Assembly (NCBI GenBank): GCA_947585915.1
Contig: CANPXJ010000001.1
Span: forward strand, 1-51,730
Reading direction: 5' to 3'
DNA: 51,730 nt
Origin: an uncultured Bacilli bacterium
GTDB lineage: Bacteria; Bacillota_I; Bacilli_A; RF39; UBA660
In this document: piece after piece, positions 1,663-47,748 of the stretch
Layout of the letters: every line of letters starts with the position of its first letter
How positions within the stretch are numbered: position 1 is the first letter of the stretch
Made by a program: the position numbers and the translations under genes
The notes under the pieces: model-generated
Database searches by the model: none
Told to the model about the DNA's origin: nothing
Seen by the model: only the letters and a program-made list of their open reading frames with translations

Positions 1663-2166
1663 TTATTTTTTAATAATACAAATTTCATCATTGTATGAAA
1701 CCGCCGGAGTAGCAGTGCTAAAAAGTTTCATACTGCCATCAGTTTCGTTTGGCTCCGTACTACAATTACCACCTGCTTTTTTTCCCCATGCTCTATATGA
1801 TTTATTTTCGATAACATATTTATATTTTGGTAAACCATCCTGAATTTCTACTTCTATTTCATAGTTATATCCTTCTTTATTTTCAATATCAACGTGTTTA
1901 TTTTCAGCTTCACTTTCAAAAACAATCGTTTGATTTGCGGTATTACCTACAGCTTTTTCTGCATACTTTGTTTGAGCAGCTTTTAAATATGCTCTTACTT
2001 CTGTTTCAAAAGCATTCTTTCGAGCATTTTCCATTATTCTTAAAACACTAGGCATGGCTAGTAGTATTAATATTGATAATATTACTATTACAGCCAGTAA
2101 TTCTATTAATGTAAAACCTTTTTTTTTCTTTAATTTTTTTATAACGTTTTTTATTTTCTTTAGCAT
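1663..2166 (-). CDS. Type IV pilin / ComGC-like pseudopilin precursor
   Basis: N-terminus MLKKIKNVIKKLKKKKG/FTLIELLAVIVILSILILLAMP is a class III (prepilin) signal: Gly-1, Phe+1, Glu+5, then a hydrophobic helix. RBS AGGTGA lies 5 nt before ATG 2166. The ORF-track GTG at 2175 lies inside the RBS. Confidence 0.8.
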   Translation of the reverse strand: MLKKIKNVIKKLKKKKGFTLIELLAVIVILSILILLAMPSVLRIMENARKNAFETEVRAYLKAAQTKYAEKAVGNTANQTIVFESEAENKHVDIENKEGYNYEIEVEIQDGLPKYKYVIENKSYRAWGKKAGGNCSTEPNETDGSMKLFSTATPAVSYNDEICIIKK

Positions 2167-2187: not shown

Positions 2188-2216
2188 AGTATACTTTTAA
2201 CCCCCCCCCAAGTCAA
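2188..2216 (-). promoter_or_regulatory. Sigma-A type promoter of the pilin gene with a G9 tract in the spacer
   Basis: Minus strand reads TTGACT(2216-2211)-T-GGGGGGGGG-TTAAAAG-TATACT(2193-2188). The spacer is exactly 17 nt. Confidence 0.7.
2201..2209 (-). repeat. Homopolymeric G9 (C9 on plus strand) tract
   Basis: Read directly. It is one of only two G/C runs longer than 5 nt that I could find in the window. Confidence 0.95.
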
Positions 2217-8233: not shown

Positions 8234-9514
8234 TTATTTCAAAGTATATACTTTTATTTGATTATCAGGTGTAATACATTGGTAAATTCCATTCCCGTTT
8301 TCTTCTATTGTTTTAAACGTTTTACAAGGAATAAATACTTCATTTTTAGTTACATTGTATATTCCATCTGCATAACTATCGTCATAAAGAACACTAATCC
8401 TTCTAAGGATATCACCAGTATTCGATAGATATTCACTTCCTATATAATCATAAGTAGCGCAAGGAATATCTATCCTATTTTTAGTTACATTGTATATTCC
8501 ATCTGCATAACTATCGTCAGAAGGAACACTAATCCTTCTAAGGATATCGCCAGTATTCGATAGATATTCACTTCCTATATAATCATAAGTAGTGCAAGGA
8601 ATATCTATCTTATTTTTAGTTACATTGTATATTCCATTTACATAACTATCGTCAGAAGGAACACTAATCCTTCTAAGGATATCACCAGTATGCGATGGAA
8701 ATTCACTTCCTATATAATCATAAGTAGCACAAGGAATATCTATCCTATTTTTAGTTACATTATATATGCCCTTTACATAACCATCGTCAGAAGGAACACC
8801 AATTCTTCTAAGGATATCACCAGTCAGTGATCTAAACTCTTCTCCAACGTACGAATACGTACTATATAAATCAGTAGTATTAAATTCTTTTTTGTTTTCT
8901 TGTAAGTTTTGATTAGGTATTTCTGTGGGCTCTGGAGTTGGAATTTGTGTTGGCTCAATAGATGAGACTGGTTCTTCAGATGGAGCTATGGATGGATCTG
9001 TATTTAAAGCAATATCTAAATTTTCTTCATCATCTTTAATAATTTTTCTTTCAAGCTTTAATGTACCATAATCTAATAAATCTATTTCGCCATTTTTATA
9101 AAATACTACTATAAAAGATTTATAGTCTTCACCAATATAGTAACCAAACTTTTCTAATTTATTATAACCAATTTTTATAATTTCTTCTCTTGTAAATGGA
9201 TCTATAAATCCATATTCTAACTCATTATTATCATTATATATTCCTACTTTAAGTAAAGCTATTTTGCCAATCTGTGATAACACATCATCTACGAAATCAT
9301 ATTTTTCGTTTATCTTATATTCAGCATCTGATTTTAAACTATTTATAATCTCACCTGCCGATATATTATTTGTTTGGTCTAAACTGATAATATCATAAGT
9401 CATACTGTTATATGAATCACATCCACTTGCAGCTACTGATATTGTTGCTATTGCACTTAATGCAATAAGCTTTTTACGATACTTTTTTATTTTTTCTAAT
9501 TTTTTATTTTTCAT
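8234..9514 (-). CDS. Lipoprotein with WG-like repeats and four 45-aa tandem repeats
   Basis: Signal peptide with lipobox AASG/C. C-terminal repeats have the form YDYIGSE..S.TGDILRRISVPSDDSY..GIYNVTKN.IDIPC.T. Confidence 0.75.
   Translation of the reverse strand: MKNKKLEKIKKYRKKLIALSAIATISVAASGCDSYNSMTYDIISLDQTNNISAGEIINSLKSDAEYKINEKYDFVDDVLSQIGKIALLKVGIYNDNNELEYGFIDPFTREEIIKIGYNKLEKFGYYIGEDYKSFIVVFYKNGEIDLLDYGTLKLERKIIKDDEENLDIALNTDPSIAPSEEPVSSIEPTQIPTPEPTEIPNQNLQENKKEFNTTDLYSTYSYVGEEFRSLTGDILRRIGVPSDDGYVKGIYNVTKNRIDIPCATYDYIGSEFPSHTGDILRRISVPSDDSYVNGIYNVTKNKIDIPCTTYDYIGSEYLSNTGDILRRISVPSDDSYADGIYNVTKNRIDIPCATYDYIGSEYLSNTGDILRRISVLYDDSYADGIYNVTKNEVFIPCKTFKTIEENGNGIYQCITPDNQIKVYTLK
8318..8857 (-). 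repeat. Four tandem 135-bp coding repeats
   Basis: Units at 8723-8857, 8588-8722, 8453-8587 and 8318-8452. Units 2-4 are nearly identical at nucleotide level. Confidence 0.9.
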
Positions 9515-27205: not shown

Positions 27206-29986
27206 TTATTTAACCACGATATTAACTATTTTATTTGGAACAACTATCACTTTAATTATTTCTTTTCCATCTATATGTTTTTTAGCTTTTTCATCTTGTA
27301 AAGCTAAAGTTTCTAGTTTTTCTTTTGGAGTATCTTTTTCCACTGCTATAGTACTTCGTAATTTGCCATTAACAGAAATAGCAATATTAATTTCTTTATC
27401 AACCATTTTTGCTTCATCATATTTAGGCCAAACCTCAAAACATAAAGGAGAATAACCAATTTCTTCATTTAATTCTTCTGTAATATGCGGAGCTATTGGA
27501 TTAAGTAATGTTAAAAGCAAATGATAATCATCTTTAGTTATACTTTCCTCATCATCATAAGCATTAGCTAAAATCATTAAAGCTGCTACGGCTGTATTAT
27601 AACCCATATTTTCGATATCATCTTCTACTTTTTTAATAGTCTTATTAATAATTCCTTCTAATTTTTGCGAATAACCTTTTTCATTATTCACTTTATCTTT
27701 TAAACGAATAATTTTATCAATAAAGCGTTTACAACCTTTAAGTGAGTCTGTGCTCCAAGGTGCATCTTGTTCATAGTTACCCATAAACATTTCATATAAA
27801 CGAAGAGTATCAGCACCATATTCTTTTACAATATCATCGGGATTGATAACATTTCCTTTGGATTTACTCATTTTTTCATTATTAGAACCTAAAACCATAC
27901 CATGAGAAACACGCGTCCATATCATTTCTTTTTGCGGAACTAAACCGATGTTGTATAAAAACTGAACCCAAAAACGTGCATATAATAGGTGTCGAGCCGT
28001 ATGCTCCATTCCCCCATTATACCAATCAACTCTATGCCAATATTTCATAGCATCCATTGAAGCAAATTCTTTATTATTATGAGGGTCCATAAATCTCAAG
28101 AAATACCAAGAAGAACCAGCCCAGTTAGGCATTGTATCAGTTTCTCTTTTAGCTGGGCCACCACATTTTGGACATTTACAATTAACCCATTCTTCAATTT
28201 TAGCAAGTGGACTTTCACCTGTATCAGTTGGTTCATATTCTGCTACATCAGGAAGAAGCAATGGTAATTCTTCTTCCTTCATTGGTTGCCATCCACATTT
28301 TTCGCAATAAATCATCGGAATTGGTTCGCCCCAGAATCTTTGACGAGAGAATATCCAATCACGCATTTTGTAATTAGTTTGTTTTTGACCACATTTATTT
28401 TTTTCTAACCAAGAAATCATTTTGTTAATGGCTTCTTCTTTATTTAAACCATTTAAATCAGCCGAGTTAATATGAATTCCATCTCCTACCATAGCTCCTG
28501 GGCCTTTAGCATATTCATAAGTTTTGCTATGTAACTCGTCTTTAATTTCTTTTAAGATAACATCTTCTTTTACCCACTCTACTTTTGTATCTACTTTCTT
28601 GTTATCTTTTAGTTTAAAGAAAAAACCAGTACTTTCAATATTAAAATATTTATTATCTTCTTGATTATGATGATTAATTTTTGGTAATTCATAAACTAAC
28701 TCTAAATTAGTATAGCCAGTTTCTTCTTCAATTTCTCGTTTAGCACATGCAAGTGGTGTTTCTCCCTCATTTATAGTGCCTCCAACAAATAATCTTTCTT
28801 CCCCATTTTTGATTGTTAAATATTTATCTTCTTTTTCATCATATACAATAGCTACAATCGAATTTTTCTTTTCTTCATTCTCATGAGGAGTACCGGTAAC
28901 TTCTTCTAATACTTGAACAATAGGAATGTTAAATTTTTGAGCAAATTCATAATCGCGTTCATCGTGAGCTGGAACAGCCATAATAGCACCTGTTCCATAA
29001 CTAGCTAAAACATAATCACTAATATAAATTGGAATTTTTTCTTTATTAACTGGATTAATAGCATAGGCACCCGTAAATACCCCAGTTTTTTCTTTATTAA
29101 GTTCAGTTCTTTCTAAATCATTTTTTAAAGCACAAGCTTTTTTATATTCTAAAACCTCACTCTTTTTATCAGGTGTCGTAATTATATCAACATATTTATG
29201 TTCTGGCGCTAAAACACAATAAGTTGCTCCATATAAAGTATCGCATCTAGTTGTAAAAACTGTGAAAGTTAAATCATGCTTATCTATTTTAAAGTCAACA
29301 CAAGCTCCCGTTGATTTACCAATCCAATTAATTTGCCCTAATTTTACTTTTTCAGCAAAGTTCGTATCTTTTAGACCAGTAAGTAAATCCTCAGCATAAT
29401 CCGACATTCTTAGCATCCATTGTGATTTTTCTTTTTGAATTACGGGATGGCCACAACGTTCACAAACTCCTCCTGCTGAATCTTCATTAGATAAAACTGT
29501 TTTACAATTTTCACACCAATTAACCGGTACTTTTTCTTTGTAAGCCATACCATGTTTATAAAATTGTAAAAACTGCCATTGCGTCCATCTATAATAATCT
29601 GGATCAGTTGTCGAAAATTCTCGGCTCCAATCAAAAGAAAATCCTATTGATTGCATTTGTTTTTTAAAAGTAGCAATATTTTTTTTAACTGCTTCTTTAG
29701 GATGAATATGATTTTTTATGGCAAATTGCTCGGCTGGGGCACCAAAAGCATCCCATCCCATAGGATATAAAACATTATAACCTTTCATTCTTTTTAAACG
29801 AGCCAAAGAATCTAGAGCTGTATAACTTCTAACGTGCCCTACATGTAAACCTGCTCCTGAGGGATAAGGAAATTCAACTAAAATATAATATGGTTCCTTT
29901 TTATCCCCTGTTACAGCCTCAAAAACTTTATTTTCTTCCCAATATTTTTGCCATTTAGCCTCTATTTTTTTGTGTCCTTTTTCCAT
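27206..29986 (-). CDS. leuS: Leucine--tRNA ligase carrying an inserted Nudix domain
   Basis: HVGH and KMSKS motifs, CP1 editing motif TTRCDTLYGATY, zinc CxxC pairs. At 926 aa it is longer than typical bacterial LeuRS because of the insertion at residues ~362-495. Confidence 0.95.
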   Translation of the reverse strand: MEKGHKKIEAKWQKYWEENKVFEAVTGDKKEPYYILVEFPYPSGAGLHVGHVRSYTALDSLARLKRMKGYNVLYPMGWDAFGAPAEQFAIKNHIHPKEAVKKNIATFKKQMQSIGFSFDWSREFSTTDPDYYRWTQWQFLQFYKHGMAYKEKVPVNWCENCKTVLSNEDSAGGVCERCGHPVIQKEKSQWMLRMSDYAEDLLTGLKDTNFAEKVKLGQINWIGKSTGACVDFKIDKHDLTFTVFTTRCDTLYGATYCVLAPEHKYVDIITTPDKKSEVLEYKKACALKNDLERTELNKEKTGVFTGAYAINPVNKEKIPIYISDYVLASYGTGAIMAVPAHDERDYEFAQKFNIPIVQVLEEVTGTPHENEEKKNSIVAIVYDEKEDKYLTIKNGEERLFVGGTINEGETPLACAKREIEEETGYTNLELVYELPKINHHNQEDNKYFNIESTGFFFKLKDNKKVDTKVEWVKEDVILKEIKDELHSKTYEYAKGPGAMVGDGIHINSADLNGLNKEEAINKMISWLEKNKCGQKQTNYKMRDWIFSRQRFWGEPIPMIYCEKCGWQPMKEEELPLLLPDVAEYEPTDTGESPLAKIEEWVNCKCPKCGGPAKRETDTMPNWAGSSWYFLRFMDPHNNKEFASMDAMKYWHRVDWYNGGMEHTARHLLYARFWVQFLYNIGLVPQKEMIWTRVSHGMVLGSNNEKMSKSKGNVINPDDIVKEYGADTLRLYEMFMGNYEQDAPWSTDSLKGCKRFIDKIIRLKDKVNNEKGYSQKLEGIINKTIKKVEDDIENMGYNTAVAALMILANAYDDEESITKDDYHLLLTLLNPIAPHITEELNEEIGYSPLCFEVWPKYDEAKMVDKEINIAISVNGKLRSTIAVEKDTPKEKLETLALQDEKAKKHIDGKEIIKVIVVPNKIVNIVVK
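28502..28903 (-). other. Nudix hydrolase domain inserted in-frame in LeuRS
   Basis: Perfect Nudix box G-x5-E-x7-REUxEExGU: G403 TINEG E TPLACAK REIEEETGY (nt 28712-28780). Flanked by beta-strand-like NSIVAIVYDEKEDKYLTIKNGEERLFVGG. Lies between the conserved LeuRS blocks AVPAHDERDYEFAQKFNIPIVQVL and GDGIHINSADLNGL. Confidence 0.85.
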
Positions 29987-30351: not shown

Positions 30352-30545
30352 AAAAAACGTCCTTAATAAGGGCGAAAAATTTCGTGGTACCACCTTAATT
30401 CCTAGTATAATAACTAGCTTATAATCCATAAGGGAGATGACCCATCACATCCAAAAGCAAGTTCATATATCATTATTGCTAGTTTCCATCAACCACTAGC
30501 TTTCTTTAAAATAAATAATATACTACTACTCTTTTTTCTTCGCTT
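30352..30545 (-). promoter_or_regulatory. T-box riboswitch, Leu specifier (CUU)
   Basis: Minus strand elements: AGAGUA GA-motif; distal stem I CUAGUGGUUGAUGGAAACUAG; specifier loop ..AUGAA-CUU-G; T-box sequence AAUUAAGGUGGUACCACG (GGTGGTACCACG at 30383-30394); terminator CGCCCUUAUUAAGGACG plus U7. Confidence 0.85.
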
Positions 30546-30551
30546 GCTAAT

Positions 30552-38605: not shown

Positions 38606-39454
38606 TTAATCACCACTACTTTTACTTTCTTTTAATAATTTGATTTTTTCAGCATTATTAAGTATATTTAATTGATATTTTGCAATAACCCTTAATATAT
38701 CAAATCTTTCTTCTTTACTTTTCCCTTCTTTAATTAATTCTGCATTATGTGACTCAAGATTTGATAATACTGTTAATTCATTAATGGAAGCATAGTCCCT
38801 AATATTAGAGTTTTTTGCTAAATCAAGATTAAGTTCTCTCCATGTTTTTGCTGTCGTATAAAATAATACAACATTTAAAATATCAGCTTCTTCAGCATAT
38901 TTTATCCATTCTCTATTTTTAAAATAATCATTATCTGGTAATATATATCTTTTTATAGCATCCGTATGAATTAAATAATTATTCTTTGTAAGTATTCTTT
39001 TTACATCCCATTCTCTATTTTGATTTTCTAACTCTTTTAATCTTTCAAATTCTTTTATTAAATATAATTTAAATACTGGACTTATAGCAGAAGCAAATTC
39101 AAAAGCAATATCTTTATGTGCGTAAGTTCCACCATATTTTCCACGCTTAGAATAAATACCAATAGCATTAGTTTTTGCACACCATTCAGTTACACTAAGT
39201 GTAAAAGTATGAAGACTAGCATTTTTTCTAAACCCGTCGAATTCGACGGAATTAAAATTTGGATTATAAATTGATTCCCAAGTACCTAAAAACTCTAAAG
39301 TTATCCGATTCCTTAACCAATTACGTATTATATCATCAGATTTTGAATTTCCTTCTTTATATTTACCAAAATCAGAAATACAAATATAATCATTATTGTC
39401 TAGCTTTGTAACATTAACTTTTATGTTTTGAACTTCTAATGTTTTATTAGACAT
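38606..39454 (-). CDS. KilA-N domain DNA-binding protein
   Basis: YICISDFGKYKEG...NWLRNR...GGTYAHKDIAFEFASAISPVFKLYLIKEF is the KilA-N pattern. Has its own RBS AAGGAGG and a downstream hairpin. Confidence 0.65.
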   Translation of the reverse strand: MSNKTLEVQNIKVNVTKLDNNDYICISDFGKYKEGNSKSDDIIRNWLRNRITLEFLGTWESIYNPNFNSVEFDGFRKNASLHTFTLSVTEWCAKTNAIGIYSKRGKYGGTYAHKDIAFEFASAISPVFKLYLIKEFERLKELENQNREWDVKRILTKNNYLIHTDAIKRYILPDNDYFKNREWIKYAEEADILNVVLFYTTAKTWRELNLDLAKNSNIRDYASINELTVLSNLESHNAELIKEGKSKEERFDILRVIAKYQLNILNNAEKIKLLKESKSSGD

Positions 39455-39656
39455 ATATTCACCTCCTTAATTTAAATCAAATATAATTCAAATAAAAAAT
39501 TTTTTTCATTAGCATTAATATAATAAATTGGCTCAGTTTTATTAAAATCTTTCATTTTTAACTCCTTTGCAATACTTTAAAAATGTCATTATTTGTTTTC
39601 TTATAAAGCTTTTTTTCAAGAATTTATTATAATGTCATTTAATTCCTTTATTTCGG

Positions 39657-40172
39657 TCACATTATATTTTGGACTAAAATGCCAGCTTTTTTTATCAAAA
39701 TTTTATTTGCCGATAACATATTAGCATAATTCTCTAAATTTTTTAGAGAATTCATCTCATCATTATCACTATAAAAAGAATAAATATTAGTTACTAATTT
39801 TTGACATTTGTTAAATTCTTCTTTTGTTGGCAAAAATTTTTTAATAATAGCTTCTATATCTTCTCTACCTTTATAATTTATAAATTCTGCCACACTTATA
39901 TAAGTTTTTATTTTCACATTATTTTTTGCTTAGGAATAAAATGTGTAGCCTAAACTATGCGAAATTATAATAGAATTTTCATTTAATAACTTTTTGTCTT
40001 TATAATTGTTTAAAATTTTTTCCCAACTTTCATATGTTGCTTCACTTTTAATAGGAAATTTAGAAAAATAATATTTAATATGATTATTATTACATAGATT
40101 TTCAATGCTTGGTGCAAATGAATATTCTGTATCACCATTGTAGCTATGTATTACAAAAACGTTTTTCCTTAT
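39657..40172 (-). pseudogene. YdeN/RBBP9-type alpha/beta serine hydrolase, inactivated
   Basis: Minus-strand frame reads (I)RKNVFVIHSYNGDTEYSF...SIIISHSLGYTFYS*AKNNVKIKTY.. and continues into ORF 39657-39917. In-frame TAA at 39930-39932. The start position reads ATA (40170-40172). SHSLG is the nucleophile elbow. Confidence 0.5.
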
Positions 40173-40193
40173 TAAATCACTTCTTTCTAAATT

Positions 40194-40862
40194 TTAGATA
40201 ATAACTTTTGTTTTTATTTCATTTTCTATTATCCAATTTATATCCTCTACCGCTTTGTCCATATTAAAAATGCCATTTCCTACTGGGTAATAAACTGGAT
40301 AAACTTTATATATCTTTTTATTAATTTCTATTTCATGACACACTTGGCGATTGGCAGATACTGAAATCTTTTTATTTAAAATAATTGAACTAACTTGATT
40401 ACCAAAAGTAATTATGATTTTAGGTTTAATTATATCAATTTCTTTATATATTAAATGAAGATATTTTTTTAAGACTTCATCAGGTAAAGGTCGAGCATCA
40501 ACTTGCGTGCATTTTCCCAAATTAGTAATAAACACTCCACTATTAGATACTTCTCTATAAACGTAATCACAAAATTCATAATCCCAATCTTTAGGCTTCT
40601 TTGTTTGAATTTGATTAAAGACATTCTCGCTTATCAAATTAACTTTAGAAAATAATTTCCAAATATTCTTAGTACCTAACCAAGGAGACTTCCTGCCTTG
40701 CCATGCTTTATTACTGGCAATATTTTTTCCAGTAGGATTCATAAAAACAAAACATATATCAGGATTTTCTTCACATCCACCATTATAGATAGAATCTAAA
40801 TTTTTATCTCCATATATAACTTGTAATTTATCATATTCTTTTTTTAAATCTGCTACTTTCAT
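40194..40862 (-). CDS. Uracil-DNA glycosylase superfamily protein (family 4/5-like)
   Basis: GGCEENPDICFVFMNPTGKN and ITNLGKC motifs in the positions of UDG motifs A and B. Confidence 0.55.
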   Translation of the reverse strand: MKVADLKKEYDKLQVIYGDKNLDSIYNGGCEENPDICFVFMNPTGKNIASNKAWQGRKSPWLGTKNIWKLFSKVNLISENVFNQIQTKKPKDWDYEFCDYVYREVSNSGVFITNLGKCTQVDARPLPDEVLKKYLHLIYKEIDIIKPKIIITFGNQVSSIILNKKISVSANRQVCHEIEINKKIYKVYPVYYPVGNGIFNMDKAVEDINWIIENEIKTKVII

Positions 40863-40881
40863 GTAATTCTCCTATACTTTA

Positions 40882-41871
40882 CTATTGATTAGTCTGTTTA
40901 TCATTTCCAATTTCTTTTAACTTTTTATCACATTCAAGAAATTTATCAAAATCGAAAACAAATAATGTATCTTGTTTTTTTCTGAATTTGTCATATTCTT
41001 TATATGCAAGCTCTTGAGCTACTTTATGAGAAATTTTTCCAGAGTTATGTAATATTTCCTGACCATTAAATTGTAAAAAAACATTAAGCTTTTCTGCCAA
41101 ATCATTCATTGTCATTGCATTATGATTTTCTGCTTGTAATTCAGCATAATCTAAATACATTGTAACAATTCTATTTAAGTTTTTTAATTCTTTTTCCGTT
41201 AAATAATTTTTAGCAATATCTACATCATATCTATAAATTGGACCATTTGGTGATTCACCCCAATTTTATTTCGGCAACAGTATTGCCAGTTACAGCATAA
41301 CGAAGTTTGTTTTGAACTGATTTAAAAAATTTTTTAGTAACATCCGAATCTTTCTCATAACCAATACTACAAGATGAATAAATGTCAGTATTTTTTGGTA
41401 AAATCTTCTTTCACTAGAGCGTATATTTTTAATCCTTTCTAAAAGTCTTTCGAAGTAATCTTCACCAAAAATATAATCAGGATTTTTTAATCTTTCATCA
41501 TCCACTACAAATCCAGTAATTAAATACTCTTTTAATACTTTTGTTGCCCAAATTCTAAAATGAGTTGCTTTTTTAGAATTTACTCGATAGCCAACCGCAA
41601 TAATCATATCTAGATTATATATCTTTACTGGTTTTTTAGAAGTATCAACGTCGGTTTTTCCGACGGTGTTATCCACACTAAGTTCACCACTATTTAAAAT
41701 ATTATTAATATGTTCTGTTATAGTACTTCTAGAAACTCCAAATAATTCCGCAATCAAATTTTGGGTTAACCAAATCTCATTATTAATTAAAAGTACCCTT
41801 ATCTTAACATCATTATTCTCATCTTTATATATTAAAAAATCATGATTTGTAATTTGTAATTTATTTTTCAT
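40882..41871 (-). pseudogene. rhuM: RhuM-family protein gene with at least two frameshifts
   Basis: The N-terminal part (MKNKLQITNHDFLIY...RSSERRFYQKI) loses frame near 41389-41391. The middle segment TDIYSSCSIGYEKDSDVTKKFFKSVQNKLRYAVTGNTVAEI is in another frame and breaks again near 41258-41272. The C-terminal part NWGESPNG...IAKNYLTEKELKNLNRIVTMYLDYAELQAE continues into ORF 40882-41160. Confidence 0.65.
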
Positions 41872-41928
41872 TATGCTCACCTCTTTTTCTATGCAAACCA
41901 AATTTTTAAAATTTTTTTATTTATTTTT

Positions 41929-42785: not shown

Positions 42786-44585
42786 TTAATTATCATCATT
42801 TTTTAAGACTGCTAGAAAAGCTTCTTGAGGGATTTCCACGCTCCCAATCATTTTCATTTTCTTTTTACCTTCTTTTTGTTTTTCTAAAAGTTTTCTTTTT
42901 CGCGTTATATCCCCACCATAACACTTTGCCAAAACATTCTTGCGCATGGGAGAAATATTTTCCCTGGCAATTATTTTAGAACCAATTGAAGCTTGGATTG
43001 GTACTTGAAACATTTGACGAGGAATTAATTTTTTTAAGTTTTCAACTATTTTCTTTCCTCTTTCATAGGCAAAATCTTTATGAACGATTACTGATAAGGC
43101 ATCAACGCTCTTACCATTAAGTAAGATATCCATTTTAACTAAATTACTTGCTTCATATCCAGCGTATTCATAATCAAAAGAAGCATAGCCCTTTGTCGAA
43201 CTTTTTAATTTATCAAAAAAATCATAAACAATTTCAGATAAAGGCAATTTATAATGAATATTTACTCGTGTTTCATTAATATACTCCATATTTTCATAAA
43301 TACCTCTTTTATCTTGACACAATTCCATAATGGGCCCAATATATTCACTAGGTACAAAAATATTAGTTTTAATAAATGGTTCTTTTACCTCTTTAATTGT
43401 TGCGCGATCTGGCATTTTGTTAGGTGAATCAATCATCAGTTTATTACCATTAGTTAAAATCACTTCATAAATAACTGAAGGCGAGGTCGCAATTATATCT
43501 ATATTAAATTCTCTTTCAATTCTACTCATTATTATTTCCATATGTAATAAGCCTAAAAAACCACAACGAAAACCAAAACCTAAGGCATCAGATGTTTCAG
43601 GTTCAAAAATTAAGGAAGCGTCATTTAATTTTAACTTTTCTAAAGCCTCTCTTAAATTCGTAAATTTATTAGGTTCGACCGGAAATAAACCAGAATAAAC
43701 CATCGGTTTTAGAGGTTGATAACCTTCTAACATTTCTTGGGCCGGCTTTTTTATAGTTGTGATTGTATCACCAACATTTACTTTAGAAATTTCTTTAATG
43801 CTTCCAGAAATCCACCCTACTTCCCCACTAACTAGCTTTTCTTTTTTCACTTCTTTAGGAGTATTTATTCCTAGTTCGACTACTTCACACTCAAAGTTAT
43901 TTGCCATCATTTTGATTTTATCGTGTAATTTAATTTCTCCATCAACAAGACGAATATGAGCAATTACGCCCCGATAAGAATCAAAATAAGAATCAAAAAT
44001 TAACGCACGTAAAGAAGCATCATTATTAACTTTTGGGGGATCAATTTTAGTAATAACTGCTTCTAAAAGTTTATCTACACCTACTCCCGTTTTTCCACTA
44101 CATAAAATAATCTCTTCTTCTTTAAAGCCTAAAACATTACATAATTCCTCTTTAACTTTATCAATATTAGCATTAGGCAAATCAATTTTATTAATAACGG
44201 GAATGATTGTTAAATTGTTATTTAAAGCTAAATATAAATTAGCTAAAGTCTGCGCCTCGATACCTTGGGCAGCATCAACAACTAAAACTGCCCCTTCACA
44301 AGCAGCTAAACTACGTGATACCTCATAAGAAAAATCGACATGACCGGGAGTATCAATTAAATTAAGTAAATATTTTTCCTTATTATATTCATAATTTAAA
44401 GATACAGCATTTAACTTAATTGTAATACCTCTTTCTCTTTCTAAATCCATGCTATCAAGAAGTTGGTCTTTCATATCGTGTTTAGAGACACTTCCAGTTA
44501 ATTCTAATATTCTATCAGCTAAAGTACTCTTACCATGGTCTATATGAGCAATTATTGAAAAATTACGAATATTTTGTTGATTCAT
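42786..44585 (-). CDS. lepA: Elongation factor 4
   Basis: [20 protein letters not shown] and DTPGHVDF motifs. 599 aa. Confidence 0.95.
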
Positions 44586-44651
44586 AACAACTCCCCATTT
44601 CTTTTTTTTATTATACTAAAAAATACTTAAATCTTAAAGTATTACTAGCAG

Positions 44652-44677
44652 AAAAAAACTACTGATTTCTCAGTAGT
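44652..44677 (-). terminator. Terminator of the beta-helix surface protein gene
   Basis: 8-bp stem ACTACTGA/TCAGTAGT with a 4-nt loop, followed by a U run on the minus strand. Confidence 0.7.
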
Positions 44678-44685
44678 AATTTTAA

Positions 44686-45825
44686 TTAATTATGTAATTT
44701 TTTAAAAGCAAATGTTAAACCTAAAGCTGAAATTACAACAGCAATAATTGAATAAATAATTGCATCAGCTGTATTTGGGTTTTTCTCTTCTGCTTTTGCT
44801 TCAGTTGAACTAGTTTCCTCTGTTTTAGGAGTAACTAATTTACCATCTGTACCTAATACCATACCTTCAGGAATATATTGGTCTTCAAGTCCACCAATAA
44901 ATGTTCCACCACTAATGGCTGTTGTAGTTTTACCAGATTTTTCTCCATATCCTTCAGCTGGGGCAGTAACACCAATATCTTTTAAGCTTAAAACATCATA
45001 AGCATTACGTTCAGTAGCATTAGTTTTTAAAACAGCATTACCTGAAATAGAAACAGTAGCTTCTTGTTCAACTTTACCTAAATCGTAAATAGCTATAGCA
45101 CTACCTTTACCATTTTCGCTATTAAATGTTCCACCAGTGATATTTAACTTAACAGAGTTATCATCACCTTGAGTATAAGATCCAGCTAAAACATATAAAG
45201 CATCAGCAAAGAAAACTCTTCCAGACCAAGAATAATTATCTTTTGGCTCATCTAATTCTCCAGTAGTAGCATTAATTGTTCCACCAGAAATATTTACATC
45301 ACCCATTCTTAAAGCAATACCACCATTAATAGTACCACCAGAAATATTTAATTTACCTTGAGCTGGCATATAAATAGCTGGTCCTTTTTGAGTAGTTAAT
45401 GTACCATTAGAAATAGTAAAATTACCTTTACCTGTTGTATTATTACTAGATAAAGCAGAACGTACAGAATCAATAATTCCACCTTGAACATTTACAGTAG
45501 CATCTTGTGTTGCAACAATACCATAATCCTCTGATTTAATTGTACCATTACTTCCACTATCAGTAATAGTCAAAGTATGTGCACCACTTATTTGAATAAA
45601 ATGATCTACTCCAGTAAATTTTAAAGTATGACCTTTTAAATCGATAGTAACATCATCTGTAATTGTTAATATTTCATTAATAGTTACTTCATTGCTATTA
45701 ACGGTATATACTTTGTTATCTCCTGTAATGTCAGTGCTTAAATCAGTAAGCGTTTTAGCTGATACTGTTGGTATCATTGCTACTCCAGCAACTATACTAG
45801 CTAACGCTAATAATTTTCCTTTCAT
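44686..45825 (-). CDS. Secreted parallel beta-helix protein with a C-terminal NPNTA sorting signal (putative SrtB substrate/adhesin)
   Basis: Signal peptide MKGKLLALASIVAGVAMIPTVSA. Repeated (I/V)(S/T)GGT(I/F)N turns. C-terminus NPNTAD plus hydrophobic helix plus KKLHN. RBS AAGGAG before ATG 45825. The ORF-track ATG at 45852 lies in the -10 box. Confidence 0.7.
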   Translation of the reverse strand: MKGKLLALASIVAGVAMIPTVSAKTLTDLSTDITGDNKVYTVNSNEVTINEILTITDDVTIDLKGHTLKFTGVDHFIQISGAHTLTITDSGSNGTIKSEDYGIVATQDATVNVQGGIIDSVRSALSSNNTTGKGNFTISNGTLTTQKGPAIYMPAQGKLNISGGTINGGIALRMGDVNISGGTINATTGELDEPKDNYSWSGRVFFADALYVLAGSYTQGDDNSVKLNITGGTFNSENGKGSAIAIYDLGKVEQEATVSISGNAVLKTNATERNAYDVLSLKDIGVTAPAEGYGEKSGKTTTAISGGTFIGGLEDQYIPEGMVLGTDGKLVTPKTEETSSTEAKAEEKNPNTADAIIYSIIAVVISALGLTFAFKKLHN

Positions 45826-45850
45826 TTCAAATTTCTCCTTTCCTATTCTC

Positions 45851-45880
45851 ATTATAACCCCCCCCCATAATGAAAGTCAA
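45851..45880 (-). promoter_or_regulatory. Promoter of the beta-helix protein gene with a G9 tract in the spacer
   Basis: Minus strand TTGACT(45880-45875)-TTCATTAT-GGGGGGGGG-T-TATAAT(45856-45851). The spacer is 18 nt. Confidence 0.7.
45858..45866 (-). repeat. Homopolymeric G9 (C9 on plus strand) tract
   Basis: Read directly. Confidence 0.95.
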
Positions 45881-46023
45881 GCTTGAGATATTAATTAAAA
45901 TTGAAAAAGTGTAAAACGCAAATTTTACGAAAAAATTATATAAGTCAATTAAGTAGGATAACTTAATATTTTACATTTTTTTTAACTAGTGATAAAATAA
46001 GAGTACAAAAAGGGTGATTTAAA

Positions 46024-47748
46024 ATGGCGCAAAAGAAGACAACAAATCAAAATAAAACTAAAAATAATTCTCACAATAAACCCCAAAAAAGTGATTTAAG
46101 AAGTAAACAATATTTTGATGAATCCACTATTCAAATTCCTAAATTAAAAAGTGACATAAAAACTGAATATAAAAAAATTAACGAAAATACCAAAAGAAAA
46201 AATACTAGCAATGTAAAAAAAACAAATAATTCTAAAGCAATTCCTACCTCTTCACAAAAAAAGAGTAATAATTCTAATAAAAATAAAAGTACTAAAAGTG
46301 TAAATAAGAGTGAGCCCTCAAGAAAGAAAACTGAAACTAAAAATTTAGTTAATAATAATTCTAAAAATAATAAAAAAGATCTCTCATCTAAAATAAAATC
46401 CCAAAAAATTGATGAGGAAATAGATAAATTTAATAAGGAAAAAAATCAAATAGATTTAAAACAGGAAAAAAATATTGACGATAAAGGTTCAAATACCAAA
46501 ACTAATATCAAAGATATTTCCAATTATGAATATCAAAAAAACGATAATTATAACTATAAAGAAAAAGCTAAAGAAATTGATGAAGAAATAGATAATTTTA
46601 ATAAAGAAAAAGAACAACAAAACGATTTAAAACAAAAGAAAAATTTTAACGATAAAAAGTTACAATCAAAAGTTATTAGCGAAGATACTACTAATTATAA
46701 AAGCAAAAAAAACGATAATTATATAAATAAGGAAAAAGAAAAGACAATCGATGAAGAAATAGATAATTTTAATAAGGAAAAGAAAAAAAATGATTCAAAG
46801 ACAAAAACTAATATCGAAGATACTACTAAATTTGATACAACATTAATTGATAATCAAAAATTAAATATAAATGATTTAAAAAGAGAACTAGAAATAATAT
46901 ATGGTGAAAAAAAGATAGATGAGCCAAAAACTAAAATTATCAAGAAAAAAAGATTACGTCCTTGGGTATTTTATCTTCTTATAATTATATTTTCTTCTAT
47001 TTTAATCTTTTCTGGTTATCAAATATATAAATGGCATAAAGATAATCAAAACATTAAAGAAATCAAAAAAGATATCGATTCAGATATAAAACCAAAAGAA
47101 AACAATGAACAAGGAGAACTTGTAAATCCTCCTGATGATAAAAATAGTGATTATTGGTATTATATAAATCTACCTTTTTATGAAGTTGATTTTAATGAAT
47201 TAAAGAAAAAAAATAGTGATACTGTAGCTTTCATTCATATGAATAATACTAATATCAATTATCCTGTAGTTCAAACATCTAATAATGATTACTATTTAAC
47301 TCATGCCTTTGATAAAAGCAAAAATAATGCGGGATGGGTATTTATGGATTATCGTAATACCTTGTCTCCTTTAAGTGATAATGTTGTAATTTATGGCCAT
47401 GGTCGTGTTAATAAAACAGTCTTTGGTTCTCTAAAAGATGCTTTATCTAAATCATGGCAAAAAAATAAAGATAATTTTGTTATTTGGCTATCAACACCAA
47501 ATGAAAATTTGCTTTATCAAATATTTTCAATTTACACAGTTCAAAGTGAAAGTTATTATATTTCTACTGACTTTGCTACAAATACCGATAAGCAAAATTG
47601 GCTTAATACTATGAAGCAAAGAAATACTGCTAGTATTGATACTCCAGTTGATGTCAATGATAATATAATTACATTATCAACATGTCAAAATAATAATGGT
47701 GGTAGAATTGTTGTTCAAGCCAAATTAATAAAACGCCAAACAAGATAA
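46024..47748 (+). CDS. srtB: Class B sortase with a long basic N-terminal extension
   Basis: Catalytic domain NINYPVVQTSNNDYYLTHAFDKSKNNAGWVFMDYRN ... VIYGHGR ... TLSTCQNN ... GRIVVQAKL (His/Cys/Arg). Preceded by a TM helix and about 310 aa of Lys/Asn-rich sequence. Confidence 0.85.
   Translation: MAQKKTTNQNKTKNNSHNKPQKSDLRSKQYFDESTIQIPKLKSDIKTEYKKINENTKRKNTSNVKKTNNSKAIPTSSQKKSNNSNKNKSTKSVNKSEPSRKKTETKNLVNNNSKNNKKDLSSKIKSQKIDEEIDKFNKEKNQIDLKQEKNIDDKGSNTKTNIKDISNYEYQKNDNYNYKEKAKEIDEEIDNFNKEKEQQNDLKQKKNFNDKKLQSKVISEDTTNYKSKKNDNYINKEKEKTIDEEIDNFNKEKKKNDSKTKTNIEDTTKFDTTLIDNQKLNINDLKRELEIIYGEKKIDEPKTKIIKKKRLRPWVFYLLIIIFSSILIFSGYQIYKWHKDNQNIKEIKKDIDSDIKPKENNEQGELVNPPDDKNSDYWYYINLPFYEVDFNELKKKNSDTVAFIHMNNTNINYPVVQTSNNDYYLTHAFDKSKNNAGWVFMDYRNTLSPLSDNVVIYGHGRVNKTVFGSLKDALSKSWQKNKDNFVIWLSTPNENLLYQIFSIYTVQSESYYISTDFATNTDKQNWLNTMKQRNTASIDTPVDVNDNIITLSTCQNNNGGRIVVQAKLIKRQTR
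46408..46836 (+). repeat. Tandem coding repeats (168, 171 and a partial 90 nt) in the sortase N-terminal extension
   Basis: Units begin with ATTGATGA(G/A)GAAATAGAT at 46408 and 46576, and ATCGATGAAGAAATAGAT at 46747 (IDEEID(K/N)FNKEK...). Confidence 0.8.

Follow-up and report, generated by a model that had tools for sequence, protein, structure and literature searches.

Homopolymeric tracts in promoter spacers are textbook expression switches in Neisseria, Haemophilus, Bordetella and the mycoplasmas. The Mollicutes, to which the mycoplasmas belong, are low-GC relatives of the Bacillota. With the poly-G tract of porA and with opc, a graded 'volume control' of expression is expected rather than a strict on/off switch. 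In the mycoplasmas, vlp, maa2 and vmm are switched by indels in the spacer between the -35 and -10 boxes, and the T-tract in the vpma promoter of M. agalactiae has no part in variation (PMC2268961). In N. meningitidis, the opc promoter carries a poly-C tract that tunes transcription, and clones have been recovered in which 11C had changed to 12C or 14C (PMC6389960). The G-tracts associated with sortase-dependent pili in Bifidobacterium breve undergo slippage to give a range of lengths, one of which is enriched in vivo (PMC9187656). SSR heterogeneity of surface proteins and pili is also found in the Bacillota, in the poly-A tract of S. aureus mapW and the leader repeats of S. gallolyticus pil1 (PMC7911514). 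A genome's phase-variable genes together are termed its phasome, and the regulon of one phase-variable DNA methyltransferase is termed a phasevarion (PMC11868660). In the literature searched on C. difficile and in gut-microbiome surveys, phase variation takes the form mostly of invertons (invertible promoters, found also in Bacteroides) and of methylation.

The window compared with these systems here is the whole stretch of DNA that was analysed, 51,730 nucleotides with a GC content of 26.6%. Two of its promoters, those of a surface-protein gene and of a type IV pilin gene, have a G9 tract in the spacer. The most likely role of the tract at the surface-protein gene is that of a mutational volume knob, a form of phase variation. 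The other genes in the window are ordinary chromosomal genes (PolA, TopA, LeuRS, LepA, RNase HII, Fpg, SpoIIP and YlbD), two of which, SpoIIP and YlbD, are endospore genes. TopA is 64% identical to that of a gut MAG labelled 'uncultured Bacilli'; among GTDB representatives with homologues, the nearest are gut MAGs that bear the labels 'uncultured Bacilli' and 'Tenericutes'. No RNA family in Rfam matches at either G9 tract, the matches elsewhere in the window being only a T-box and tRNA. The T-box leader (30365-30548) lies upstream of the leucyl-tRNA synthetase gene (27206-29986), in whose product the editing domain is followed by an inserted NUDIX domain (residues 376-475), as is also the case in L014. 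The ORF at 8234-9514 contains a 135-nt tandem repeat (8342-8824, 3.6 copies, 94% matches) and has a weak Cloacin_immun Pfam match. KilA-N, uracil-DNA-glycosylase-superfamily and RhuM-family genes sit amid housekeeping genes at 38606-41901, a segment which may be a small mobile or prophage-remnant island.

The G-tract promoter and the genes around it

The tract-bearing promoter lies on the minus strand, and the sortase gene is divergent from it. The main features of this region are as follows.

45875-45880, minus strand: -35 box TTGACT of the surface-protein promoter, read from the sequence
45874-45867, minus strand: TTCATTAT, the 5' part of the spacer, between the -35 box and G9
45858-45866, minus strand: G9 tract, GGGGGGGGG (C9 on the plus strand), putative slipped-strand hotspot
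45857, minus strand: single T between G9 and the -10 box
45851-45856, minus strand: -10 box TATAAT
45835-45840, minus strand: RBS AAGGAG, 9 nt 5' of ATG 45825, kept in all lineages
44686-45825, minus strand: surface-protein gene, 379 aa plus stop by translation
44658-44677, minus strand: terminator-like hairpin and T-run after the surface-protein gene
45970-45998, plus strand: sortase promoter-like site from the promoter scan, TTTACA, 17 nt, TAAAAT, with TG
46024-47748, plus strand: divergent class-B-type sortase gene, 574 aa, in which a K/N-rich repetitive extension at the N-terminus is accompanied by a transmembrane segment and a sortase domain

The original prediction had given this promoter as TTGACT, a stretch of sequence, G9, T and TATAAT with an 18-nt spacer, followed by AAGGAG and ATG 45825, and every one of these elements is found as it was given. 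The spacer covers 45857-45874, with G9 adjoining the -10 box. The tract (G9, 45858-45866) is uninterrupted and of a length that can slip, which takes about 7-8 nt or more, and by consensus match it is predicted to lie between the -35 and -10 elements. In the promoter scan the site appears as the rank 1 sigma-70-like match in 44500-46200, agreeing at 11 of 12 hexamer positions, and a weaker promoter-like site is located 5' of it at 45915-45888. A G-quadruplex is ruled out, there being one G run only, and transcriptional slippage is ruled out with the tract upstream of the predicted start.

The start given for this gene in the ORF list, ATG 45852-45850, shares its first two bases with the end of the -10 box (TATAATG), as the original prediction had also recognised. 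Judged from the sequence, ATG 45825 (45825-45823) is the true start, because an RBS precedes it, the signal peptide MKGKLLALASIVAGVAMIPTVSA opens there and homologue P0004 supports it; this homologue, 66% identical, starts at MKGKLL and has no in-frame ATG further upstream. The database entries of the family have 388-389 aa instead of 379 and are nine codons too long, because gene callers start the gene within its -10 box. Between lineages, conservation extends over the region bounded by the -35 box and the start codon, while the DNA 5' of the -35 box is unrelated. The -35 box is TTGACT, TTGATT or TTGACA across all five lineages, and TTATAATGAGAATAGGAAAGGAG, the stretch comprising the -10 box and 5'UTR, is identical in four of them. 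At its other end the surface-protein gene is monocistronic, because the terminator-like hairpin at 44677-44658 follows it; lepA has a promoter-like site of its own.

The N-terminus of the surface protein is a typical signal peptide, and its C-terminus consists of NPNTAD, the hydrophobic segment AIIYSIIAVVISALGLTFAF and a KKLHN tail. In the alignment of homologues, the sorting-motif column is NPNT, NPDT or SPKT. NPxT and SPxT are SrtB-type sorting motifs, and all features of a class B sortase substrate (signal peptide, NPxT-type motif, hydrophobic segment and positive tail) are present. The description of the product as sortase-anchored in the original prediction is supported by NPNTAD, the hydrophobic segment, KKLHN and the divergent class-B-type sortase gene, and as a prediction from sequence the anchoring is well founded. 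The product had also been called a beta-helix protein and an adhesin. Its AF2 model is confident (pLDDT 82), all-beta and solenoid-like, but the Foldseek comparison with the PDB gives no significant match, with a best E-value of 0.099 and a TM of at most 0.33. The highest-ranked of these non-significant matches all belong to right-handed beta-helix proteins (AlgG, pectate lyases, tailspikes and the SRRP of L. reuteri), and a beta-helix fold is no more than plausible. No Pfam or NCBIfam family matches the protein either, which leaves the adhesin role as a guess.

More than 400 homologues of the surface protein are found, all of them from genome or metagenome assemblies, and 13 genome loci with homologues were recovered, mostly from gut or rumen MAGs. 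Between the window and P0002-P0005, there is almost no difference in the signal peptide, the promoter and 5'UTR, or the C-terminal sorting signal, whereas identity drops to 23-50% in the central exposed part. This mosaic, cassette-like divergence suggests that diversifying selection or recombination may act at a conserved expression site. A contig from a further lineage carries two tandem surface-protein paralogues (L030:9-773 and 912-2090), and the downstream one, P0083, has TTGACT and TATAAT without a G tract.

The divergent sortase, which matches Pfam Sortase at 3.4e-12 and scores 151.8 bits against NCBIfam sortase_srtB, just below the cut-off of 153.75, is presumed to anchor the surface protein. 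Its synteny with the surface-protein gene is retained in L002, L003 and L008-L011. The sortase promoter-like site is about 90 nt from the G tract and does not overlap it; at this distance, overlapping divergent promoters of the hifA/hifB type are ruled out. The spacer of this site contains a T8 run (45976-45983, A8/T8) that is invariant across all lineages. The N-terminal extension of the sortase, 380 aa long and rich in Lys and Asn, is built on a 171-nt tandem repeat (46406-46807, 2.4 copies); the enzyme has 574 aa in the window and 482 aa in the P0003 lineage. At L012:524-540, a 7-bp deletion disrupts the sortase gene.

Occurrence, position and length of the tracts

The G/C runs of the 51.7-kb window comprise eleven of length 5, none of length 6, 7 or 8, and two of length 9. 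In shuffles of the window, the expected number of runs of G8 or longer is 0.12. The search string GGGGGGGG has four overlapping matches against 0.12 expected from dinucleotide shuffles, and none of 100 shuffles reaches four. A chance origin of the G9 runs is excluded. Each run falls within the sigma-70-like promoter that scores best for its surface-protein gene, and in both the sense strand carries the G's. The same arrangement is found in the clade-wide run scan, which covered 84.9 kb of clade loci together with L035-L045. Every G/C run of at least 8 in the clade loci scanned lies between a -35-like and a -10-like hexamer, upstream of a gene for an extracellular protein, and always has G on the sense strand. 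These runs fit the pattern TTGAC-N(1-10)-G8+-N(1-10)-TATAMT, with the sole exception of L029, where the -35 box is TTGATT. The original prediction had regarded a random scatter of long G/C runs as evidence against a promoter device; in the window and in the clade loci, all such runs are in promoter spacers.

The second tract of the window belongs to the pilin gene.

2188-2216, minus strand: pilin promoter, with TTGACT (2216-2211), T, G9 (2209-2201), TTAAAAG and TATACT (2193-2188), spacer 17 nt
1663-2166, minus strand: orphan type IV pilin or pseudopilin, 167 aa, ATG 2166, with the prepilin GFTLIE motif

The pilin promoter is rank 1 in its region in the promoter scan, with 10 of 12 hexamer matches. 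Its likeness to the surface-protein promoter, for which the TTGACT box, the 9-nt G run and the common minus strand had been cited, holds in these three respects, but the pilin spacer is 17 nt long, the -10 box is TATACT and the tract adjoins the -35 box, whereas that of the surface-protein gene adjoins the -10 box. The pilin leader, KKKKGFTLIELLAVIVILSIL, has the G/FTLIE N-methylation motif and matches Pfam N_methyl (8.2e-09) and TIGR02532 (4.2e-08). The pilin tract is G9 in all five assemblies (the window and L031-L034), which represent at least two strains. Related pilins (lineages P0129 and P0133) have no G tract, which makes the tract specific to one pilin gene.

Several features of the pilin locus can be added. 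An A9 run at 2119-2127 (T9 on the plus strand) lies in the leader (KKLKKKKG), before the cleavage site, and is identical in all contigs seen; it could be a second slippery site, of the frameshift type. At this locus (1157-1498 and 1663-2166), the G9 pilin gene stands after ylbD-ylbE, with no pilus-assembly genes nearby, and is followed by an ISNCY-type transposase remnant. In relatives, a tract-less pilin is located between ylbE and a zinc-ribbon/AP-endonuclease pair.

A third type of tract-bearing gene is found in the genome of a species with P0004-type genes. At L039:5649-5683, TTGACT is followed by TTTCTTC, G9, TGA and TATAAT, giving a 19-nt spacer; the promoter has a TGn extended -10 element and a terminator immediately upstream. 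The gene (L039:5712-7229) encodes a 505-aa protein whose N-terminal part has a signal anchor and matches Pfam Peptidase_M73 (camelysin/TasA). The tract-bearing genes are thereby of three unrelated types, which encode the putatively SrtB-anchored, beta-solenoid-like surface protein, the type IV pilin and the TasA/camelysin-like protein, and the expectation that independent surface genes share the device is supported at unrelated genes for extracellular proteins. On this evidence, genes for extracellular proteins appear to form a small phasome in the clade.

The spacing of the tract promoters can be compared with that of ordinary promoters of the clade. A scan of about 96 kb of clade DNA for hexamer pairs with at least 11 of 12 matches, set against shuffles, shows enrichment only at a spacer of 17 nt (12 observed, 4.2 in shuffles). 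The tract-free strong promoters of the clade prefer 17 nt, and the tract promoters have 17-19 nt: the pilin promoter has 17, and the surface-protein and TasA-like promoters have 18 or 19, one or two slips off 17. Since the 18-19 nt spacing is one or two slips from the local optimum, a +/-1 indel would matter there. The original prediction had taken 17 nt as the optimum, and this agrees with the enrichment in the clade, but no surface-protein assembly is at 17 nt. Because none of the assembled states of this gene has a 17-nt spacer, the assignment of one length as ON and another as OFF is a guess, and 18 nt could itself be the functional state of the surface-protein promoter.

Five lineages were recovered through exact-protein look-ups, for which the window protein was represented by its 388-aa mis-called version; look-ups with the 379-aa form and with LepA gave no match. 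A single large ENA study (ERZ272491xx-ERZ272496xx), together with its runs, is the source of the contigs that carry close relatives. The tract and spacer of each lineage are listed with the protein identity.

Window lineage: 100% identity, G9, spacer 18 nt, 3 of 3 assemblies
P0002: 88% identity, GGGGAGGGGG (interrupted, G4AG5), spacer 19 nt, 6 of 6 assemblies, identical
P0003: 84% identity, G9 or G10, spacer 18 or 19 nt, G9 in 4 and G10 in 2
P0004, at a different chromosomal locus: 66% identity, TTGACA, TC, G8, TATTAAAT, TATAAT, spacer 18 nt, 2 of 2
P0005: 54% identity, G9 with -35 box TTGATT, spacer 18 nt, 1 of 1

By contig, the tract is G9 or G10 in L008-L013, G4AG5 in L002-L007, G9 in L001, L029 and L045, and G8 in L014 and L015. 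Length polymorphism is seen in the P0003 lineage, whose contigs are at least 99.6% identical to each other. Apart from the tract, the contigs that differ in its length agree at 99.9-100%. Over 3,438 nt, the sole difference between L010 and L011 is the tract, G10 in one and G9 in the other, and both lengths are found on one two-SNP haplotype. The variable contigs have a coverage of about 5-6x, and since ENA and Logan contigs may share samples, the independent observations of G10 are perhaps only two. Two internal controls are invariant: the interrupted G4AG5, which behaves as a locked allele, is identical in six contigs, and the A8/T8 run 110 nt away from the tract is the same in all lineages. 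In P0004, it is the -35 box and not the -10 box that G8 adjoins, and the spacer is still 18 nt long. This positional freedom, together with the conserved core promoter, suggests that what is selected is the presence of a tract and not a particular sequence. The window's own lineage shows no length variation (G9 in all three assemblies). The comparison of related genomes suggested in the original prediction shows variation in the sister P0003 lineage, as G9 and G10, but neither in the window lineage nor at the pilin gene, where all assemblies have G9. More distant homologues, 31-57% identical in the family alignment of the GTDB genome scan, have no upstream G tract; they come from MAGs of Clostridia, Oscillospiraceae, 'Bacilli', 'Tenericutes' and Saccharibacteria, and the window's species is not among them. 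A scan of JGI metagenomes for TTATAATGAGAATAGGAAAGGAG gave no matches.

Proposed slipped-strand variation and rival explanations

The G9 tract is probably a slipped-strand contingency locus that grades transcription through the spacing of the -35 and -10 boxes. In the proposed mechanism, a hypermutable G9 would sit in the spacer of a sigma-A-type promoter, upstream of a monocistronic gene for a secreted, class-B-sortase-anchored, beta-solenoid-like protein. Slipped-strand mispairing during replication would add or remove one G, the spacer being 17 nt with G8, 18 with G9 and 19 with G10, and the distance and helical phasing of the -35 and -10 boxes would shift with each step. Transcription would thereby be graded up or down in a heritable yet reversible manner, and such length-dependent switching might be frequent within populations. 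The divergent sortase gene would retain its separate promoter. The same device would operate on the type IV pilin promoter in the window and on the TasA/camelysin-like promoter in a related genome.

The constancy of G9 in the three window-lineage and five pilin-promoter assemblies, and the 18-nt spacing of most lineages, would also be expected of a fixed architectural element, an inherited G run that perhaps stiffens or shapes the spacer and whose length differences reflect slow, effectively neutral microevolution. A promoter homopolymer without switching is on record in the vpma T-tract (PMC2268961). Such an element is unlikely here. Contigs with no other difference carry G9 or G10 on a shared SNP haplotype, the pure tract varies whereas its interrupted form shows no change at all, and independent recruitment has placed tracts in different parts of the spacer and in front of non-homologous genes; with a genome GC content of 27%, G9 is, in addition, an extreme outlier in composition. 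The apparent G9/G10 difference might instead be attributed to homopolymer miscalls in low-coverage metagenome assemblies, the tract itself being real, since homopolymers are error-prone and the variable contigs have only about 5-6x coverage. This is extremely improbable, given that ENA NODE contigs and Logan contigs each give both G10 and G9, from different samples, that such noise is absent from the six contigs with G4AG5, from the five assemblies of the pilin G9 and from the A8 run at similar or lower coverage, and that every assembly reproduces the existence and position of the tract.

It is very unlikely that G-richness rather than length matters, with the run serving as a sequence-specific cis element, either a regulator site or, if the start lies upstream, part of a transcribed leader. 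The weaker promoter-like site at 45915-45888 is upstream of the tract, and the G run is conserved down to 54% protein identity, as a cis element would be. However, the tract shifts from the -10 side to the -35 side between homologues, and its flanks at the pilin and TasA-like genes are unrelated, the sole constant being placement between the hexamers. The upstream region is not conserved between lineages, and in L039 the terminator lies directly upstream of the tract promoter.

If the tracts do switch by slipped-strand mispairing, this uncultured gut lineage varies a sortase-anchored protein, a pilin and a matrix-type protein by localised hypermutation, and tract length in metagenomic reads would report the expression state in situ. 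The tract-linked surface proteins are likely targets of host antibody or phage. In very AT-rich MAGs, G/C runs of at least 8 would mark variable surface genes cheaply and with high specificity.

Comparison with known switches

The mechanism proposed here is a classic one, and the host belongs to a group in which its spacer-tract form is not well documented. The original prediction that the device had not been described in this type of organism stands in part: no report of a promoter-spacer G-tract in a walled, spore-forming Bacillota was found in the literature searched, where absence is no proof, but spacer switching is known in the Mollicutes (PMC2268961), and other Gram-positive SSR switches are known. 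It is put forward tentatively that, in this very low-GC gut Bacillota lineage with endospore genes, tracts of G8-G10 have been repeatedly recruited into promoter spacers to form a genuine SSR phasome in a walled Gram-positive. The term 'phasevarion-like', used in the original prediction, is not appropriate. The tract-linked genes encode the surface protein, the pilin and the TasA-like protein, and no DNA methyltransferase is found among the window ORFs scanned; the right term is phasome (PMC11868660). As in a phasevarion, several genes would vary stochastically, but each has its own tract here.

The mycoplasma switches, vlp of M. hyorhinis (poly-A), maa2 of M. arthritidis and vmm of M. mycoides, likewise have their tracts in the spacers of surface-protein genes, and several surface genes per genome carry the device. 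Their tracts are A or TA repeats, their hosts are wall-less Mollicutes and their products are lipoproteins. Here, in contrast, the tracts are G8-G10 in a genome of 27% GC with endospore genes, the organism is sortase-bearing, the protein is wall-anchored, and switching is predicted from the tract. In opc and porA, a homopolymeric G/C tract is similarly found in the core promoter of a surface-protein gene. Their hosts are Gram-negative pathogens with dozens of SSR loci, while the present host is a gut Bacillota with two tracts in 51.7 kb. B. breve resembles it in being a gut Gram-positive commensal whose G-tracts are tied to sortase-dependent surface structures. The tracts of this high-GC actinobacterium are intragenic and act by frameshift, as a translational on/off switch, whereas the tract described here would act on transcription from a promoter spacer in a low-GC Bacillota. 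In mapW and pil1, variation operates through shifts of the coding frame or through leader-peptide and terminator control; at the present locus, it would operate through the spacing of the -35 and -10 boxes.
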